In this document: positions 6,865 to 13,369 of the stretch, in pieces
Position numbering within the stretch: the first letter of the stretch is position 1
Layout of the letters: every line of letters starts with the position of its first letter
IMG/VR virus record: IMGVR_UViG_3300009285_008166
Strand: one strand, 5' to 3'
Length of the DNA stretch: 13,925 nucleotides
From: a virus
Made by a program: the position numbers and the translations under genes
Notes under the pieces: model-generated
What the model saw: the letters and a program-made list of their open reading frames with translations, nothing else
What the model was told of the DNA's origin: nothing
Databases searched by the model: none

Positions 6865-7665
6865 CTACTTCGACGTTATGAACGCAGGCCGGCCTATCGC
6901 CGTCGCCATGACGTTGATCGGATGGCCCTTCGGTTCTTTTGCGGCTGCGCGGACGCGCAGCCAAAGTTCATCAAACGCGGCGTCAGCTTCTGGCGTTGCC
7001 AGGTCTTCGGGGCCCCAGAAGTCGTTGATTTGAACAACCGGCACTCCGCGGGCGGCTAGCGCCGACGCTGTCTGCCAGATGAACGGGTCAAGCGCTTCTA
7101 GATAGGACAGTGGCACGCCGGCCTCAACCGTTCGGCCCCGGCGTTTCAAGTTGTCGTGGCACACGCGCGGCGGCAGCGCGCTGTGTATGACGACGTTGGG
7201 CCCAAGGACGTTGGACAGCATGACGTCGGCAAGACGGTCGTACAGGGCCGCGTGGCGGGGGTGTATGGCACCGGCGGCGGTCGCGACGCTCTTGAACGCC
7301 GGGTCGATGTACGGCCCGCCGTCGTGCGTGCACGTCACACCCAACATGCGAAGCCAGTGCGCGACGACGGACTGCGGGTAGCGTTCGGCAAAGGCGTAGA
7401 TTTGCATGAGCGCGCCACGGCCCCGGTCAATACCGGAGAGGGCATCGGGGTAGTAGTCGGCCAAATACTCGCCCCACAGAGGCGTGTCCACGGGTTCTAA
7501 AAACAGCGCGCGGGGCAACGGCGCCCGCCGGTGCAAGCCCCACGCGATTTGGGTCTTGGTCGATCCAATATTACCGATGACGGACACGTAGAAACCAGTA
7601 TCCACACGTTCGGACGCGAGCCCAAAAACAAAATCGCCGCTATTTTTGTCCGGCGTTTCGATCAT
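6865..7665 (-). CDS. Deoxynucleoside kinase family (dCK/dGK/dNK-like) protein, 266 aa, with an atypical P-loop GNIGSTKTQ
   Basis: VIGNIGSTKTQ resembles IEGNIGSGKTT. The LID-like RVCHDNLKRRGRTVEAGVPLSYLEAL resembles the dNK-family R.R.RGR.EE...YL motif. Confidence 0.55.
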   Translation of the reverse strand: MIETPDKNSGDFVFGLASERVDTGFYVSVIGNIGSTKTQIAWGLHRRAPLPRALFLEPVDTPLWGEYLADYYPDALSGIDRGRGALMQIYAFAERYPQSVVAHWLRMLGVTCTHDGGPYIDPAFKSVATAAGAIHPRHAALYDRLADVMLSNVLGPNVVIHSALPPRVCHDNLKRRGRTVEAGVPLSYLEALDPFIWQTASALAARGVPVVQINDFWGPEDLATPEADAAFDELWLRVRAAAKEPKGHPINVMATAIGRPAFITSK

Positions 7666-7918
7666 TGTCGTCGTACCCCCGGACGTTCAAATTGAGAATG
7701 TTAAGCGCCCACGCAATGCTTGTGATCGGCCACAGGACAATCAAGACAGCGATGAAAAGCAGCATGGCCCACGGCGGCCACGTTACGCGTTTCGTAACAC
7801 GATAAGTAACGGGCCTTGTAACCGTGATAGGCCAAAACGGACCCCACGATACACGCCAGACGACAGTCGCGCCCACGACAAACCAGCATAAGGCCAAAAA
7901 TGCAACCGGGACGGTCAT
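7640..7918 (-). CDS. Small integral membrane protein, 92 aa, with 2-3 TM helices
   Basis: Hydrophobic segments VPVAFLALCWFVVGATVVW and WAMLLFIAVLIVLWPITSIAWALNIL. ATG overlaps the upstream TGA (ATGA). It overlaps the kinase gene start by 26 nt. Confidence 0.6.
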   Translation of the reverse strand: MTVPVAFLALCWFVVGATVVWRVSWGPFWPITVTRPVTYRVTKRVTWPPWAMLLFIAVLIVLWPITSIAWALNILNLNVRGYDDNDRNAGQK

Positions 7919-9015
7919 GAAGCGTCGTTCAACCGTGGCAGTGCGTAGACTTCGGCGAGCGTCATTGACGCCGGCACAGGCGTGGGGGCGCGGCGCTCCA
8001 ACGACGCCGCAAGGCGCAGGGCGACGTCTTTGGGCAGTGGTTCAAAAACAACATGCTGGCAAAGCCGCCCGGGGCGTAGGATCGCCGGGTCCAACGTGAC
8101 ACTCGCGGCGTTCGTTGTAACAAACAGTCGCAGATCCAACGCCCGCCCCAAAATCCCGTCGGACGCGTTGAGGATAACGGCAATTGCACCCGCGTTGCCT
8201 TCGAAACGTTCGACGATAGCCGAGTCGGCGTCTTCGATTATCAGGTTTAACGGTTGGCCGTCGTCGATGTCGCTTCGCAGCCTAAGCAACGCCCGCGTCA
8301 AAGTTGGCGACGTCAAACCGGCGACGTCGGACGTCGGCAGCAAGACAAAGTCGCCCGCGGTTTTCGCCATCAAGCCTTCGAGCCACCGGGTCTTGCCAGT
8401 GCCCGGCGGGCCGGTAAGAACCGTCAGGCGGCCACAGGGTTCGCGGGCGGCGGTTTCGGCGACGGCGTGGTCGAACGCCTTTATGTTCCTGGCGCTGTAG
8501 TTAGCAGGAGCCAACGCCCCCGGCGTGACTTGGATACGCCGAAATTCCACGTGACCCATGTGTTCGACGGCCGCGACGTAGACGTTTGGCGCGTCCACGG
8601 TTACCGGTTCGACGTACAGAGGCTTAAGCCTATCTGCAAGCTCGGATACGAATACGCGTTCGCCAAGCAACTGCACGGCGCTGACAGCGAGCGGGTTAAC
8701 ACAGGCAGCAGCGTCGTCGTCATCGTCGTCGTTGCCATCAGCGGCATCTTTGACGTACCGCACCCACGCGATAGCGGTGCCGCCGTCAAACAAAAACGGT
8801 CGGTTTAGACTATCGTATGAAATCGGACGCATGGTTTCGGCTAACACGGGCACAACGTTGGCTGCGCAGCCCAGCCGCACTATAGCGCCCCGTTCCGCGG
8901 CATTAGGATCCTGCAAGACGGCAAGCCTGACCGCCATTGAAACGCCCGACGTGTCCGTCACGTTGGGGTTCATGTAGCTGAGCTTGACCCGCCAATTGAA
9001 TTTATCGCTCGACAT
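7915..9015 (-). CDS. Classic-clade AAA+ ATPase, 366 aa if it starts at 9015, with a ~200-aa N-terminal domain of unknown function containing a poly-Asp stretch
   Basis: Walker A GPPGTGKT, Walker B LNLIIEDAD, and a second region of homology VTTNAASVTLDPAILRPGRL. Start chosen at ATG 9015 because a GGGTGGA RBS precedes it. An in-frame ATG at 9066 would overlap the upstream gene by 64 nt. Confidence 0.75.
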   Translation of the reverse strand: MSSDKFNWRVKLSYMNPNVTDTSGVSMAVRLAVLQDPNAAERGAIVRLGCAANVVPVLAETMRPISYDSLNRPFLFDGGTAIAWVRYVKDAADGNDDDDDDAAACVNPLAVSAVQLLGERVFVSELADRLKPLYVEPVTVDAPNVYVAAVEHMGHVEFRRIQVTPGALAPANYSARNIKAFDHAVAETAAREPCGRLTVLTGPPGTGKTRWLEGLMAKTAGDFVLLPTSDVAGLTSPTLTRALLRLRSDIDDGQPLNLIIEDADSAIVERFEGNAGAIAVILNASDGILGRALDLRLFVTTNAASVTLDPAILRPGRLCQHVVFEPLPKDVALRLAASLERRAPTPVPASMTLAEVYALPRLNDAS

Positions 9016-10753
9016 AGGTCCACCCAGGCACGTCACGGGACGGCCGCAAGACTGACTGAACGACAACCTGCCCGATCAGGCCCGCGTCAACAGCTTTGCC
9101 AAACGCTACGAGCACGTCGGCCAGCGTGTCTGCATCAAACGGCCGCTCTTCTGGGATCAGGACCCGAAGCGGCGAGTCCGATCCCAATGCAGCCGCCGCC
9201 GCGGCAGACACCGTCGCCCACTCGGCGCCAGACAAGGCGACGTCGATTTCTTCGTTGCCGTCGCGGTTTCTAACGAGGCCGAACTTCCAGCCGCCGCGCT
9301 TCGACGTCAACGACATGCCGAATGTCCAGCCGGTGGGCAAGTAGGCTTGCACACGAGCGCTGAAGTCGATGATCTTCGCATCGACGGTGTCAGCGACGAA
9401 CGTATCGACCTTCTTGGCGAGCTTCTTGAAGACGTCCGACCGGCCTAGGCCCTCCGCAGCGACTTGCTTCAAGGCGCCCAGACCCTTCCAACGTCCGGCA
9501 ACGTCCATGAGCCGTGCATACTCGGCACGGGCGTTGGGCACAAGCGAAGCGTTGGCCGTTAGCCACCCGGCAACGTCCGCCCGAATATTCTCCGGCAACG
9601 TCGCCAACGCCGTCTGACACGCCGCGATGTCGGCGTCGATCTCGGCGATGCTACGCATCGTCGAGATCGACGAGATCGATGGCATCGACGGGGGCGACAC
9701 CGACGCTGCAAGCGCCGAAGGCGCGCGCAGCGCCGGTGTGTGTTCGTGGAGAAAGGCGTCGCAGCGGTTTTGGGCCGCCGTGAAGATGGCCGCTTCAGTC
9801 GGGCGTTCGCAGACGGGGCATGTCGGTATGCCTTGCTGCAAGCACATGTCGGCGACGGTCCTGACCGCACGCACCGCCGCCAAGATCGCCGGTGACACCG
9901 TCGACACCGTCGCCGCTGGCGCGGCTTCCGGTGTCGCCGGGATCGTCGACGTCGGCGTCGGCGCCGACAGCGACGGCGCGGCCTCGGCACGTTGGCGTTC
10001 GGCGTGCAGCATCGACAGGCGCTGTTCGACGTCGTGCATTCGAACGACGCTGTCCCACGCAGTCGCAAGCTCTTGGCTTCGGGCCTGGGCCGCGGCGATT
10101 TCGTCGTCGGTTGGCGGCGGGGGCAGGTCTTTCGTTGTCGTCTCAAGCGACGTCGTCGCGGCCTTGGACTCGTCCGAGGCCCGTTTGGCGGCGGCTGCTG
10201 CGACTTCGGCCAACGTAATCAGGACGTCGGCCGTCGTCGCGTCGGATGGCGCGCTCGCCTGCGCCGCCGCAAGGCAAGTCGCAAACTCGGCCGCGTACGT
10301 GCCACAGGCTTTGCGGCACGCTTTGACGAGGTCGTCGTTACCAACGACGGCGCGTAGGATCGCCCGGCGAGCGGTCTCCGGCGAGCCCGTGAGCACGTCG
10401 CGAACGTCGCGGGCCGGCAAGATGCCGTTTGCCGCGAACGGCGACTTCAGCGCCGGCCGGCCGCCCTTGCCGCGACCCGTAGACTTCACAGTCGCGACAG
10501 ACGTCGACCCGTCAGACAGCGTGGCCGTCGCCTTAAGCTCGGGGCCGTGATTTTGCGCCAGGGACAACAGCATCCCACCGTCGGCGACGGTGCTCCGGCC
10601 TTGAAGGTCATCGACCTTGCCCGTTAGGGCAAGTTCAATGGCCGAGACAACGCTTGTCTTGCCGGACGTATTCTTGCCGACAACGACGGTCTTGGGCGTC
10701 AAATCGACGTCCACGCCGCCTTTGACGTTGGCGGTAATGTGGGATACGTGCAT
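9002..10753 (-). CDS. SbcC/Rad50/SMC-family ATPase with a CPVC zinc hook, 583 aa
   Basis: Features, in order:
- N-terminal P-loop VVVGKNTSGKTSVVSAIELALTG.
- Q-loop-like ILPARDVRDVLTGSPETARR.
- Central Ala-rich and coiled-coil arms with a TCPVCE hook at aa ~311-316 (nt ~9808-9823).
- C-terminal signature LSGAE.
- Walker B-like LRVLIPEE.
- D-loop FDAD.
Start set at the internal ATG 10753. The ORF track's 785-aa form has an Arg-rich, non-protein-like N-terminal extension that overlaps the upstream gene. Confidence 0.7.
   Translation of the reverse strand: MHVSHITANVKGGVDVDLTPKTVVVGKNTSGKTSVVSAIELALTGKVDDLQGRSTVADGGMLLSLAQNHGPELKATATLSDGSTSVATVKSTGRGKGGRPALKSPFAANGILPARDVRDVLTGSPETARRAILRAVVGNDDLVKACRKACGTYAAEFATCLAAAQASAPSDATTADVLITLAEVAAAAAKRASDESKAATTSLETTTKDLPPPPTDDEIAAAQARSQELATAWDSVVRMHDVEQRLSMLHAERQRAEAAPSLSAPTPTSTIPATPEAAPAATVSTVSPAILAAVRAVRTVADMCLQQGIPTCPVCERPTEAAIFTAAQNRCDAFLHEHTPALRAPSALAASVSPPSMPSISSISTMRSIAEIDADIAACQTALATLPENIRADVAGWLTANASLVPNARAEYARLMDVAGRWKGLGALKQVAAEGLGRSDVFKKLAKKVDTFVADTVDAKIIDFSARVQAYLPTGWTFGMSLTSKRGGWKFGLVRNRDGNEEIDVALSGAEWATVSAAAAAALGSDSPLRVLIPEERPFDADTLADVLVAFGKAVDAGLIGQVVVQSVLRPSRDVPGWTYVER
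9890..9960. repeat. Direct repeat, copy A, of a ~56-70 bp segment with a 39-bp exact core (9907-9945). It lies inside the SbcC-like gene and encodes PATPEAAPAAT.
   Basis: The core CCGTCGCCGCTGGCGCGGCTTCCGGTGTCGCCGGGATCG is identical at 10986-11024. Confidence 0.8.
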
Positions 10754-10785
10754 GGTGTTTGTTCTTTCTGTTACAGGGTCAAGTG

Positions 10786-11400
10786 CTACCGCAGGGCCCG
10801 GCGGATGGTGCGAATCTTGTTGATTTCGACGTCGATGCTTGACGTAGCAGCCTTGTACGCCGCACGAGCCGCAACGCGAGCCTTCTGCAAGTCGGCGTAC
10901 GCGGCGGTCTTCGTTTTTTGCAACTCCCGCACAGCGTTGTCGAGCAGCCGTTGCAGGTCCATCGTGACGGTTGATGTCGGCGACGCCGTCGCCGCTGGCG
11001 CGGCTTCCGGTGTCGCCGGGATCGACGGCGTCGGCGGAACGTACGCGCCCGTGCCGCCGCCGTGCTGAGGCCGCCAAGTTCCCGCAGCGACGGCTGCATT
11101 GCGGAACAGCTTGTAGTGCGTGTCGCAGTAGCCGCGCGCGGCAATCGTTCGGCCGCACCGCATGCAGCCTCGTACGTACACCGGACGTTGCGGCGTCGGC
11201 TTCGACGTCGACGTCGGCGTCGGCGTAGACGTCGTTGGCTTCGTCCGGCTGCCGCGGCCCTTGGCCAAGGGCACCCACTTGCCCGCGGCAAGCGCGACCG
11301 TGCGTACGTGCTTCCAATGCTTCCGGCAAAGACCACGTGCGACGGCGAAGTCGCCGCACTTGCGGCAGTACAGCAGAGGCTTACGATCATTCGGTTTCAT
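10786..11400 (-). CDS. Tandem zinc-ribbon protein, 204 aa, with two CxxC-x9-[LY]CxxH[WY]K motifs of the actinobacterial 'HNH endonuclease signature motif' type, a Pro/Thr linker and a C-terminal coiled coil
   Basis: The two motifs are CRKCGDFAVARGLCRKHWK and CMRCGRTIAARGYCDTHYK. ATG overlaps the upstream TGA (ATGA). Its stop lies 32 nt before the SbcC-like start. Confidence 0.65.
   Translation of the reverse strand: MKPNDRKPLLYCRKCGDFAVARGLCRKHWKHVRTVALAAGKWVPLAKGRGSRTKPTTSTPTPTSTSKPTPQRPVYVRGCMRCGRTIAARGYCDTHYKLFRNAAVAAGTWRPQHGGGTGAYVPPTPSIPATPEAAPAATASPTSTVTMDLQRLLDNAVRELQKTKTAAYADLQKARVAARAAYKAATSSIDVEINKIRTIRRALR
10969..11040. repeat. Direct repeat, copy B. It lies inside the tandem zinc-ribbon gene, in the same reading phase, and encodes PATPEAAPAAT.
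   Basis: See copy A. Confidence 0.8.
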
Positions 11401-11882
11401 AGAAAGGCCCTTTCGAATTCGTTCTCACCCACAGGTTCGCCTGCGATACGGACTTTGGCGTAGTTTTGCCAAGCCAATTTCTTGTTGTAGTCGGGCTCCG
11501 ACGTGTCGTGTTCGGCTAGGCGCAACCCGACCACGACGGCGCCGACGCCGTTGCGCCAAACAGCGATCTGCCGGTTGTTCTCCAGCGCGGAGAGCACGAC
11601 ATCGTAGTTGCCTTTGCCAACGTAGCCATCCGGGTTCTCGACGACAACGAAATAATCAAAGTTCGGCTGGCCGCTTACGTCTCGACCCATGCCCGCCCAT
11701 GAACCCCACCCGCCCCAGCCTCCGCCGCCTTCTTTGTACCGAACAAAGGCGTCGGCTGATGTGAGAACGACGCCTTGGCCGTTAACTGCTGCGTAAACTT
11801 GGCGGGTGACTTCTGACATCGTCTCCGGCGGCGAATCTTTCGGAAACAGGATCAGGCCCTTTGGCCTAGCAACTTCCCCCAT
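11397..11882 (-). CDS. Hypothetical alpha/beta protein, 161 aa, with a Gly/Trp-rich loop (GGGGWGGWGSWAGMG)
   Basis: Start set at ATG 11882 because a GGGGGA RBS lies 5 nt upstream. The track's 178-aa form begins at TTG with no RBS. Confidence 0.55.
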   Translation of the reverse strand: MGEVARPKGLILFPKDSPPETMSEVTRQVYAAVNGQGVVLTSADAFVRYKEGGGGWGGWGSWAGMGRDVSGQPNFDYFVVVENPDGYVGKGNYDVVLSALENNRQIAVWRNGVGAVVVGLRLAEHDTSEPDYNKKLAWQNYAKVRIAGEPVGENEFERAFL

Positions 11883-11893
11883 GTCGATCCCCC

Positions 11894-11912
11894 ATGCTGA
11901 CTGCGTCAGCAT
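11894..11912. promoter_or_regulatory. Perfect 8-bp inverted repeat ATGCTGAC-tgc-GTCAGCAT immediately upstream of the RBS of the 161-aa gene
   Basis: Seen directly in sequence. Confidence 0.35.
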
Positions 11913-11942
11913 CACGCGAACAGCGAACGTCAAACGTCGAAA

Positions 11943-12200
11943 TCAAGCCGTGCAACGCAAGAATGCCAGCTTCGTCGCGTAGTCTTCTGGGTTGGCCGTG
12001 TCGGGCAGCTTCACGGTTTCAATGTGATCTATCACGTGACGTACCGGCGCTGTCACAGTCTCCGCGACCCAAGCGGCGTTACAGTCTTCACAGAGCATCG
12101 AGATCAAGCCGGTTTCCCAGACGTCGGGGGTGGTTCCACGCCAACACTGGGCTTGCGCGTCGTAAAACGGCCGTATCTGGATCGGCTTGACTTGTGCCAT
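11943..12200 (-). CDS. Hypothetical Cys/Trp-containing small protein, 85 aa
   Basis: ATG at 12200 follows the RBS-like GGTGGGAAACGAA. In the 97-nt region where it overlaps the 12104..12604 gene, GC3 is higher in this frame (about 71% versus 61%). Confidence 0.5.
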   Translation of the reverse strand: MAQVKPIQIRPFYDAQAQCWRGTTPDVWETGLISMLCEDCNAAWVAETVTAPVRHVIDHIETVKLPDTANPEDYATKLAFLRCTA

Positions 12201-12604
12201 TTCGTTTCCCACCCGGCGGGCTTTGGCTTCTTCTTGTGCTTACGCTTGCCGGTGGACGGAGATTCTAGACGCCGCTGTGTTTCCAGTGCCTGCACAGACG
12301 CAGCGCGTTCGGCTGCACGTCCGGCTTGCAGCAAGAACGTCGCGGCACGCTGCGCGGCGTTTGCCGCAACGGTAACGTAGAACGTGCCAGCGCTGTCGGT
12401 GTATGGCGATAGCCGTTGGATTCGCACTAGATCAGCCTCAACCAGCGCCTTTTCACGTTCAATCTGGGCGATGTCGCCTTCGATGACGATGCGTACGTGT
12501 CCGGCGGCGGGCGCTGCGTTACGAAGCGCACGCGCTGCACGCAGATGCTTTTTGATCGCCGTTAGCGAGTCGGCAAGATTTTTTGTGGCGACTTCCCGCG
12601 ACAT
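12104..12604 (-). CDS. Hypothetical coiled-coil protein with a Lys-rich basic tail, 166 aa. Apparently the first gene of the operon; leaderless start.
   Basis: ORF track. No RBS, but a promoter-like element ends about 7 nt upstream of the ATG. The last ~32 codons overlap the next gene in another frame. Confidence 0.55.
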   Translation of the reverse strand: MSREVATKNLADSLTAIKKHLRAARALRNAAPAAGHVRIVIEGDIAQIEREKALVEADLVRIQRLSPYTDSAGTFYVTVAANAAQRAATFLLQAGRAAERAASVQALETQRRLESPSTGKRKHKKKPKPAGWETKWHKSSRSRYGRFTTRKPSVGVEPPPTSGKPA

Positions 12605-12610
12605 GAAAGG

Positions 12611-12639
12611 AGACTACGCCTTTTCAACCGGCGTGTCAA
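12611..12639 (-). promoter_or_regulatory. Sigma70-like promoter. -35 TTGACA at 12639..12634, a 17-nt spacer, and -10 TAGTCT at 12616..12611. The predicted TSS is at or next to the ATG at 12604, giving a leaderless mRNA.
   Basis: Minus-strand reading: cTTGACAcgccggttgaaaaggcgTAGTCTcctttcATG. Confidence 0.45.
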
Positions 12640-12976
12640 GGGGGGCGCCAACCGTGCGTGAGCGCCGTTATGGCCCAGTCTGGCAGGCTTTTGTTTGTTT
12701 CCGCTTGACCAACGGCTTCCGCACGGAAGCACGCGTCGGCTGCGGTTCGTTCCTTCCCGGAGCGCGTAGTTCTGCTGTGATTAAACCCGGCAACGGTGAC
12801 GGTCCAAACAAACGTGTTTTCGATCAAGTCAACGTTCGCACACACGCTCAGGGGAAACAAGTACAAGTTCGGATGCATTTGACGCGATATGGCACACGTC
12901 CACGGGCTATGGTTAAGTACCTTCGGCGCCCATTGGAACTTGGTTCCCTTTGGCGGGAAGTAGTCTTGCGCCTTGC

Positions 12977-13369
12977 TCACGTCAGCCAACCCCGTAAACG
13001 CTCGTCGTATTCGCAAACGATTCGCCCGGCAAGAAACAAACGCGACGCCATGTCACGGGCGCCCCGCGACTGCGACTTGTCGGTGTAAAACGCGAAGCCG
13101 GCCTCCGGCTGGCCTTCATCGAGCATCTGCTGGTTTCGAATCGGACCGGCGCTTCGGCCGTACGTCGTCCAGTAGGCGGGAAAGCGAAGCACGGTCAAGC
13201 CGGCGGCGGTCGCTTCTTGCGCTGCGATACGGTCCGCGCCGCGGGCTTCGCCTTCGATGACAACGCACGGGGGACCTAACGTTTTCACGAGCGCGCGGAT
13301 CACACCCCTGTTTGTAAAGTCACGTGAGCCGCAGATCAAAACGCGGCGTAAGTTGTGCGTCCAGTGCAT
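12977..13369 (-). CDS. DUF2493 family (SLOG-superfamily, DprA/LOG-like) protein, 130 aa
   Basis: ICGSRDF...VVIEGEARGADRIAAQEATAAGLTVLRFPAYWTTYGRSAGPIRNQQM matches the recalled DUF2493 pattern CGGRDF...IIHGAARGADRLAGEWA...FPADW..HGKGAGMIRNQQM. Confidence 0.65.
   Translation of the reverse strand: MHWTHNLRRVLICGSRDFTNRGVIRALVKTLGPPCVVIEGEARGADRIAAQEATAAGLTVLRFPAYWTTYGRSAGPIRNQQMLDEGQPEAGFAFYTDKSQSRGARDMASRLFLAGRIVCEYDERLRGWLT

Follow-up and report, generated by a model that had tools for sequence, protein, structure and literature searches.

A phage family of Rad50-like zinc-hook ATPases beside DNA polymerase, with a divergent member encoded between a zinc-ribbon gene and an AAA gene

Three consecutive genes of an uncultured virus encode a protein with two zinc ribbons, a Rad50/SbcC-like ATPase with a zinc hook, and an AAA ATPase, and no Mre11/SbcD nuclease gene adjoins them. 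What does a hook ATPase of this kind do in a phage, and do its two neighbors work with it? The genes lie in IMG/VR virus record IMGVR_UViG_3300009285_008166, a stretch of 13,925 nt that was analyzed whole and is called the window below; positions are counted on it. A sequence-only reading had taken the three genes for one functional module, with the zinc-ribbon protein as a possible nuclease partner. We arrived at a different view, which we hold with moderate confidence in all of its parts taken together. The region would be part of a single operon of closely packed genes that all point the same way, carried by an uncultured phage of a groundwater metagenome; the three genes would be operon neighbors, held together by ordinary tight phage packing and not as a conserved three-part machine; and the ATPase would serve as a clamp or tether on phage DNA. 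The find that remains is a sizeable, phage-only family of Rad50-like hook ATPases, encoded beside a DNA polymerase and never seen near Mre11. The three genes are:

10786..11400, minus strand: zinc-ribbon gene, 204 aa by translation
9002..10753, minus strand: hook ATPase gene, 583 aa; ATG at 10753, after a 32-nt gap from the zinc-ribbon stop
7915..9015, minus strand: AAA gene, 366 aa; ATG at 9015, overlapping the ATPase stop by 14 nt

These open reading frames (ORFs) and their spacing were reproduced as first described on the minus strand, which carries all substantial ORFs of the window. The motifs quoted for them (two ribbons, P-loop, LSGAE, CPVC, LIPEE and GQVVVQSV) were all found, and the phage context of the region was borne out as well. 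Homolog alignments back the chosen starts of the ATPase and AAA genes; longer ORFs initiated at GTG or TTG (785 and 383 aa) were rejected as the genes, since homologs begin at the ATG starts. A second assembly from a groundwater metagenome (ENA; L003 below) matches window positions 4942-13035 at 99.74% identity and differs by only three substitutions outside a tandem array. This assembly is independent, and the region is therefore no assembly artefact.

Fold and catalytic motifs of the hook ATPase

By its predicted structure, the 583-aa protein is an ABC ATPase of the SMC/Rad50 fold whose antiparallel coiled coil bears a zinc hook at its apex, as the sequence-only reading had supposed. The AlphaFold2 model, computed with 30 family sequences as input, reached a predicted local distance difference test score (pLDDT) of 87 and a predicted template modeling score of 0.67, and it places the two head halves at residues 1-170 and 478-582, with long helices between them. 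At the apex of the coiled coil, CPVC sits on a short hairpin made of helix 288-307, bridge residues 311 and 318, and helix 321-351 (DSSP on the model); binding of Zn by the hook is predicted from the CPVC sequence and from this position in the model. Foldseek against the PDB returned Rad50 (7zr1, 2.5e-9), Smc (5xei, 1.2e-8) and LmuB (9hqx_B, 1.1e-7), followed by Smc5/6, JetC (2.4e-6 to 1.1e-5), MukB and RecN, all at ~12% identity. The comparison puts the modeled protein in the SMC/Rad50 superfamily, with no specific affiliation. Its best matches among predicted viral structures were proteins that are unnamed or generically called SMC, Rad50 or 'recombination endonuclease subunit'. Sequence libraries see only the P-loop: Pfam AAA_23 aligned to residues 18-64, and many PADLOC ATPase models aligned over ~30 residues.

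Conservation of the head and hook motifs was counted in 235 family members, with the following result for the window protein:

10655..10678, minus strand: Walker A, GKNTSGKT, residues 26-33; Lys32 in 232/235 members
10391..10420, minus strand: segment LPARDVRDVL at the putative Q-loop position, with Arg115 for Gln; Arg in 182/235, Gln in 9/235
9809..9820, minus strand: CPVC, predicted zinc hook, residues 312-315; Cys312 in 230/235, Cys315 in 231/235
9218..9235, minus strand: ABC signature, LSGAEW, residues 507-512; essentially invariant in the 235 members
9134..9163, minus strand: Walker-B-like segment and D-loop, VLIPEERPFD, residues 531-540, from the family alignment
9050..9070, minus strand: H-loop-equivalent strand, QVVVQSV, with no His, residues 562-568; Gln562 in 235/235

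LPARDVRDVL had first been described as Q-loop-like, a label that does not hold literally, as the segment has no Gln; the order of the head elements suggests that it occupies the Q-loop position. Across VLIPEERPFD, Pro534 is kept in 224 members, Glu535 in 205, an acidic residue at 536 in 234, Arg537 in 231 and Asp540 in 224 (n = 235). The H-loop strand shows Pro or Thr at position 568 in 221/235 members and His at position 567 in only 5/235, and the window ATPase has no His at either position. The canonical counterparts of these two elements read LILDEV and IISH in T4 gp46, and LFLDEG and VISH in E. coli SbcC.

When the family was compared by hhalign with single T4 gp46 and SbcC sequences, the P-loop alone aligned. 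The equivalence of the other motifs was for this reason drawn from motif order and from a distant relative, Rctr197k_029 (KX853510.1 28128-30326; L091 11857-14055), a 732-aa 'hypothetical protein' that is a full-length family member (E 1e-25). Its Walker B reads 'VLLDDED', on which the family profile puts Pro534 at the second Asp and Glu535 at the Glu. Therefore, Pro534 stands where the Walker-B Asp would be, and Glu535 corresponds to the catalytic Glu. The non-canonical Walker B and H-loop suspected in the window protein were thus confirmed, with a Pro at the Asp position and no H-loop His throughout the family. Judged from the alignment, the departures at Walker B, Q-loop and H-loop are constrained family traits and not the decay of one copy.

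A phage family beside PolA

An exhaustive HMMER scan with the ATPase gave 850 clusters at 50% identity (E<=1e-3), 136 of them at E<=1e-30, and overturned the impression of a rare family left by a word-index search that had returned 2 relatives. Among the best matches listed, most align over their full length at 550-650 aa, and the family is typically ~560 aa long. The window ATPase is a divergent member: its best non-self identity is 34%. It aligns end to end with the family and carries all of the family signature (GxxGxGK[ST], CxxC, LSGAEW, P-E-[DE]-R-x-[FW]-D, QV and GW).

The family is phage-specific and almost purely viral, with 77 loci in IMG/VR, many of them on contigs of 60-76 kb, against three contigs of metagenome-assembled genomes among 185,579 GTDB species genomes. 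Among 50,697 GenBank phages, searched at the DNA and protein levels, neither the whole window nor the ATPase nor the typical family member P0055 had a match, and the group is without a cultured relative. With the conserved PolA as query, the only GenBank phage found was Rctr197k, a 197-kb metagenome-assembled virus carrying one distant family member, the Rctr197k_029 introduced above, which directly follows polA. The family overlaps PHROG 1499 ('unknown function'; E 6.3e-8 for the window ATPase), and it is so far unnamed or generically labeled, though common in phages. As a separate observation, the Rctr197k record contains CRISPR arrays and some 50 tRNAs.

Gene neighborhoods were compared in 61 dereplicated lineages over +/-8 kb; ORFs were called naively and clustered, and profiles were built from them. 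The recurrent neighbors, in which UDG stands for uracil-DNA glycosylase, and the corresponding gene of the window are:

UDG-exonuclease-PolA fusion, up to 4.5 kb upstream of the ATPase: 54/57 loci whose sequence reaches far enough
c1, a protein of ~145 aa encoded between PolA and the ATPase, within 2.5 kb upstream: 53/59 loci including the window; median gap to the ATPase ORF 176 nt
Small helix-turn-helix (HTH) protein, just upstream of the ATPase: 21/59 loci
PD-(D/E)XK-like protein, further upstream: 30/50 loci
AAA_24 protein, further upstream: 34/50 loci
DUF927 primase-helicase, downstream of the ATPase: 25/45 loci
NrdR-like zinc ribbon, immediately downstream of the ATPase: 11/45 loci
11397..11933, minus strand: c1-family gene of the window, 178 aa; its stop overlaps the zinc-ribbon start by 4 nt

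The typical order is a PD-(D/E)XK nuclease, AAA_24, a ~200-aa protein, the UDG-exonuclease-PolA fusion, c1, often the HTH protein, the ATPase, and often DUF927. The four closest relatives of the window ATPase have this same arrangement, as do two further lineages (L001 and L002). The most consistent close upstream neighbor of the family is c1 (consensus FLAH.K...GRDDY...GGW.AW..DV...FH..VVP...VGKATA.IV), for which Pfam and a PDB profile search gave no match. A profile of 52 c1 proteins recognized the 178-aa ORF of the window at E 2.7e-14. The 3.2 kb of upstream sequence available in the window contained no PolA-family ORF; the core from c1 to the ATPase is kept.

The missing Mre11/SbcD neighbor, first noted for the window, proved to be a property of the related loci as well. 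No Metallophos/SbcD-like ORF (calcineurin-type phosphoesterase) lies anywhere in the window, and phmmer or jackhmmer, with the limited sensitivity of a single seed, detected no SbcD-like ORF there, none within +/-8 kb in 84 related loci, and none in the loci of the four closest relatives. In the 197,311-bp Rctr197k record, neither SbcC nor SbcD was detectable by phmmer, and the sole 'phosphohydrolase' there has DHH-type motifs.

The family shares with Rad50, SbcC and T4 gp46 a bipartite ABC head, an antiparallel coiled coil and an apical CPxC hook, and the hook ATPase is about the size of gp46 (560 aa). It differs in having Arg for the Q-loop Gln, Pro for the Walker-B Asp, and Pro, Thr or Val for the H-loop His, as well as in having no Mre11/SbcD neighbor at any examined family locus; by sequence, the P-loop is the only part that aligns. 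Curated thresholds were missed (TIGR00618 sbcc gave 14.8 bits against a cutoff of 478.5), and Rad50 models of NCBIfam reached E ~1e-6 at best, on a few family members. The architecture is closest to Rad50/SbcC/gp46, a group from which the family is set apart by its catalytic motifs, the missing Mre11 linkage and these thresholds. A hook-bearing Rad50-like ATPase region that works without Mre11 has a precedent in RloC (PMC3458546). RloC is a cellular, bacterial protein and has a C-terminal anticodon-nuclease domain, whereas the hook ATPase ends right after the head and is phage-encoded, in a replication module.

These features suggest how the ATPase could act. Two chains would join at the Zn-bound CxxC hook, if the protein dimerizes, and the heads would sandwich ATP between Walker A and the signature motif. 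The engaged dimer may form a clamp or tether on phage DNA ends or on replication or recombination intermediates. Hydrolysis would probably be slow or non-canonical, because the family as a whole has other residues in place of the Q-loop Gln, Walker-B Asp and H-loop His, and the ATP-engaged state would be long-lived; the acidic pair and the Arg of P-E-[DE]-R are kept. Nuclease steps would be left to a separate enzyme, for example the PD-(D/E)XK protein of the typical module, and not to Mre11. The three replaced positions are normally held essential in ABC and SMC ATPases. Characterization of one member would tell whether a hook/coiled-coil ATPase serves as a nuclease-independent DNA tether in phage replication. 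Also at stake are how an ABC head works with neither a canonical Q-loop nor the Walker-B Asp and His switch, and an annotation for a common phage gene.

The flanking proteins and the three-gene question

The 204-aa protein encoded upstream of the ATPase consists of two C-C-C-H ribbons, Pro/Thr-rich linkers and a C-terminal segment of 58 residues (147-204). Both ribbons follow the pattern C-x2-C-x7-G-x-C-x2-H-[WY]-K, at residues 12-30 and 79-97, and were located by reading the sequence:

11311..11367, minus strand: zinc ribbon 1, CRKCGDFAVARGLCRKHWK
11110..11166, minus strand: zinc ribbon 2, CMRCGRTIAARGYCDTHYK, the stretch matched by PHROG 5351

The frame behaves as coding sequence: its GC content at third codon positions (GC3) is 0.78, and the two ribbon segments as well as the C-terminal part keep the order GC3>GC1>GC2 seen in the neighboring genes. 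The protein has zero homologs among 5.8 billion proteins and none in GenBank phages. Its sole family match is to PHROG 5351 'HNH endonuclease', where profile positions 13-34 of 171 align to residues 81-102, so that the match covers the N-terminal ribbon of that family only; neither Pfam HNH nor PADLOC gave a match. Of only four His residues in the protein, two are taken to be the Zn ligands that complete the C-C-C-H sets. A role as nuclease partner thus lost its footing, with no HNH catalytic domain and no homolog to support it. The zinc-ribbon gene stands between those for c1 and the ATPase, at the place that a small HTH gene has in relatives. We infer from these features that the product is a lineage-specific small DNA-binding or adaptor protein and not a nuclease. 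Two of the three substitutions in L003, at window positions 11313 and 11329, fall within zinc ribbon 1; by codon reading, one changes Lys30 to Glu and the other is probably synonymous, and they are too few to interpret.

The third gene, from its sequence matches and its model, is a BCS1-like ATPase of the classic AAA clade. Its motifs, including the second region of homology (SRH), are:

8389-8412, minus strand: AAA Walker A
8224-8244, minus strand: AAA Walker B, 'LIIEDAD'
8065-8079, minus strand: AAA SRH, 'LRPGR', in the alignment to Cdc48 D1/D2

Pfam AAA matches the 366-aa protein at 7.9e-8, and the best PDB matches by sequence are Cdc48 and Rpt. By structure, the best match is heptameric Bcs1 (9gsn, 1.1e-12 over 381 columns), and Bcs1 chains take ranks 1-5 (E 1e-12 to 2e-11, 354-426 columns) at a template modeling score of ~0.4. 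The novelty first claimed for the N-terminal domain could not be demonstrated: the whole protein aligns best to Bcs1, and residues 1-140 are modeled with low confidence (pLDDT 50-60), too poor for a fold claim. In Walker B, E261-D262 is invariant in 36 homologs and pairs with the D-E of Cdc48 in the alignment; a Walker B with 'ED' where others have 'DE' is typical of BCS1. The classic AAA module, the SRH and the invariant 'ED' are shared with BCS1, from which the protein differs in having no N-terminal membrane anchor (maximum 19-residue Kyte-Doolittle value 1.38, at residue 44) and no match to Pfam BCS1_N.

The AAA protein has homologs in Myxococcus phage Mx1, in jumbo phages (PA5oct-like ones and others) and on metagenomic contigs, and in none of these cases is there an SMC-like neighbor. 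BCS1 orthologs have already been described in jumbo phages, with a proposed chaperone or translocase role (PMC7824862). The window protein is probably a BCS1-like phage chaperone or translocase that moves independently among large phages. A small membrane protein of the 92-aa ORF type listed below was considered as a conserved partner of the AAA protein and rejected, as AAA homologs elsewhere have no such neighbor.

Conservation of the trio was assessed over all family loci with an AAA-family profile and a regular expression for the ribbons. Among the 61 dereplicated lineages and the four closest relatives, a zinc ribbon of the window type occurred in the window lineage only. The loci of the four closest relatives have neither the ribbon protein nor a related AAA gene, and a related AAA gene stands near a family ATPase in one other lineage, L070, at a distance of 2.9 kb and not adjacent. 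The trio that had been put forward as a module is therefore conserved in no other lineage; genes that occur only separately in homologous genomes were looked for, and this is what was found. A three-gene system, if true, would have been a new kind of phage machine, and the evidence does not bear it out. The L070 locus (6753-14985) has the family ATPase and a related BCS1-like AAA within 3 kb, with neither PolA nor c1 upstream. It also encodes an SNF2-like helicase, an SLOG-like protein (GGQTGADQ), an ADP-ribosylglycohydrolase-like protein and a 182-aa metallophosphatase, a content that recalls the window.

Known defense systems offered no better frame for the three genes. The analogy to Septu proved superficial: an ABC-type ATPase does stand beside a protein with an HNH-associated motif, but PtuA models align to residues 21-52 only (the P-loop; E of at least 1.4e-4), there is no PtuB-like HNH protein, and gene order and hook architecture are different. 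When the neighborhood was scored with PADLOC, all matches were at the level of the P-loop and no defense system was supported; mad3, mad8, LmuB, GajA and PtuA were accordingly rejected as evidence of defense.

Packing in the operon is tight on both sides of the trio, and two further genes follow the AAA gene:

7640..7918, minus strand: 92-aa ORF with two hydrophobic segments, in the same operon; its start overlaps the AAA stop by 4 nt
6865-7665, minus strand: deoxynucleoside kinase gene, with a 26-nt overlap with the 92-aa ORF

Every gene, at least from 11933 down to 6865, is joined to the next by an overlap of 4-26 nt or a short gap, and a scan of the region found no promoter or terminator signal between genes above shuffled background. 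The 14-nt overlap of the ATPase and AAA genes is not distinctive, because the neighboring operon genes are all packed alike. The ATPase and zinc-ribbon genes also share a direct repeat of 59 nt, in two copies that are 93% identical:

9899..9957: copy 1, in the break of the ATPase coiled coil; encodes IPATPEAAPAAT at residues 271-282 (pLDDT<50)
10978..11036: copy 2, in linker 2 of the zinc-ribbon protein; encodes the same IPATPEAAPAAT at residues 127-138

Such similarity in the disordered linkers of both proteins implies a recent sequence exchange between the adjacent genes.

A functional trio confined to this lineage is nevertheless conceivable. The zinc-ribbon protein would recruit the ATPase to DNA, possibly through its C-terminal helical segment on the coiled coil, and the AAA protein would remodel or recycle the clamp. 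What support remains for such a partnership comes from the tight linkage (the 32-nt gap and the 14-nt overlap), from the 59-nt repeat in the two upstream genes as a mark of sequence exchange, and from L070, which is PolA-less too and has the ATPase and a related AAA within 3 kb; moreover, it is plausible that a clamp whose hydrolysis motifs are crippled would require an unloader. We nonetheless consider the trio unlikely. It is absent from all other lineages, as is any adjacent pair; the zinc-ribbon protein has no homologs, and the AAA family is found without SMC-like neighbors. Other operon genes overlap likewise, and the repeat is a low-complexity Pro/Thr/Ala linker in disordered regions.

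Several points weigh against our preferred reading, in which the three genes are no more than operon neighbors and the ATPase is a clamp or tether of its own. L070, another PolA-less lineage, carries a related AAA within 3 kb of the ATPase. With no PolA in the available 3.2 kb upstream, the window shows a rearranged context that may have let new partnerships arise, and the 14-nt overlap and the 32-nt gap would allow translational coupling. The search for Mre11 reached +/-8 kb at each locus and, beyond that, Rctr197k alone, the latter by single-sequence phmmer. The neighbor analysis was built on naive ORF calls and +/-8 kb of sequence, and the replication or recombination role of the family is inferred from synteny.

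A wider proposal is put forward only tentatively, as the less probable extension of the same findings. The PolA-linked hook ATPases may form a branch of their own within the Rad50/SMC superfamily, independent of Mre11, with an active site rewired throughout the family: Pro for the Walker-B Asp, Arg for the Q-loop Gln and no His switch, but an invariant acidic-Arg pair. They would act as ATP-latched DNA tethers or clamps with slow or non-canonical hydrolysis, integral to replication and recombination in a very large clade of uncultured phages, and the window lineage may have added a private zinc-ribbon adaptor and a BCS1-like unloader.

Remaining alternatives and other features of the window

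Very unlikely, in our estimate, is a counter-defense or exclusion factor, in which the ATPase would be, for example, a decoy or poison subunit for SMC-like immune complexes of the host that sense DNA ends (Lamassu, Wadjet, SbcCD), or a shield for phage DNA ends. Its structure is near LmuB and JetC as well as Rad50, its degenerate catalytic motifs suit a binder more than an enzyme, and conflict-type genes abound in the window (macro domain, RNA ligase, SLOG), with another on L003 (AcrVA2-like). Lamassu senses viral DNA ends (PMC12663957). Against this role, the family has a fixed place in the core replication module in 54/57 lineages, unlike anti-defense genes, which are typically mobile, and PADLOC models reach the P-loop only. 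The fold shared with LmuB and JetC is SMC-like and their action is likewise Mre11-independent, but the likeness to LmuB (9hqx) is a generic SMC-like one. The window has no LmuA/LmuC or JetA/B/D partners, and the family is viral, not cellular. The PADLOC model of LmuB covers ATPase residues 14-48 only (E 3.6e-6), and the neighboring genes gave no Lamassu matches.

A plain phage ortholog of Rad50/SbcC, with its Mre11/SbcD encoded in an unseen part of the genome, would suit the Rad50 architecture, the canonical CPxC hook, the gp46-like size, the near-universal presence of SbcCD in large phages (PMC7824862) and a visible genome of only 13.9 kb, but it is highly improbable: the T4 and E. coli gene pairs are close or adjacent, yet no such gene lies within 8 kb in ~90 family loci and none is detectable in the 197 kb of Rctr197k; the family falls short of every curated Rad50/SbcC threshold; and the alignment to gp46/SbcC covers the P-loop only, with Q-loop, Walker B and H-loop all non-canonical.

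Elsewhere in the window, genes of repair or conflict type form a cluster that also includes the deoxynucleoside kinase gene (6865-7665), and two further genes stand toward the ends:

4025-4489, minus strand: macro domain/phosphatase-like gene
5079-5957, minus strand: RNA ligase gene
12977-13369, minus strand: YspA-type SLOG gene
530-3256, minus strand: 908-aa protein resembling major vault protein (MVP)
13372-13908, minus strand: truncated SulP-type sulfate permease gene

The 908-aa protein matches Vault_3 (6e-11) and MVP_shoulder (4e-22), with a weak SPFH/Band_7 match, and has no match in PHROG or PADLOC; such a protein is unusual in a phage context.

Three tandem arrays with a 9-nt period and a unit of about CGACGCC[GC]A on the plus strand lie at window positions 8-115, 3322-3416 and 4942-5054. 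At least two are intergenic between minus-strand genes, one ~65 nt upstream of the start of the MVP-like gene and the other between the stop of the RNA ligase gene and the next start. Their copy number differs between the two assemblies, by indels in multiples of 3. L003 starts at window position 13035 and diverges exactly at 4942, at the third array; beyond that point it carries the AcrVA2-like gene. The shifts in copy number and this divergence therefore mark the arrays as recombination or assembly breakpoints, and in the true genome the part of the window before position 4942 may be connected in another way.

At the other end of the window, the SulP fragment matches positions 119-269 of 380 in Pfam Sulfate_transp. 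Its GC content is 0.56, against 0.62 elsewhere, and its stop directly adjoins the SLOG gene, which starts at 13369. It could mark where an integrated element meets host DNA, or it could have been captured or be the product of a chimeric join.

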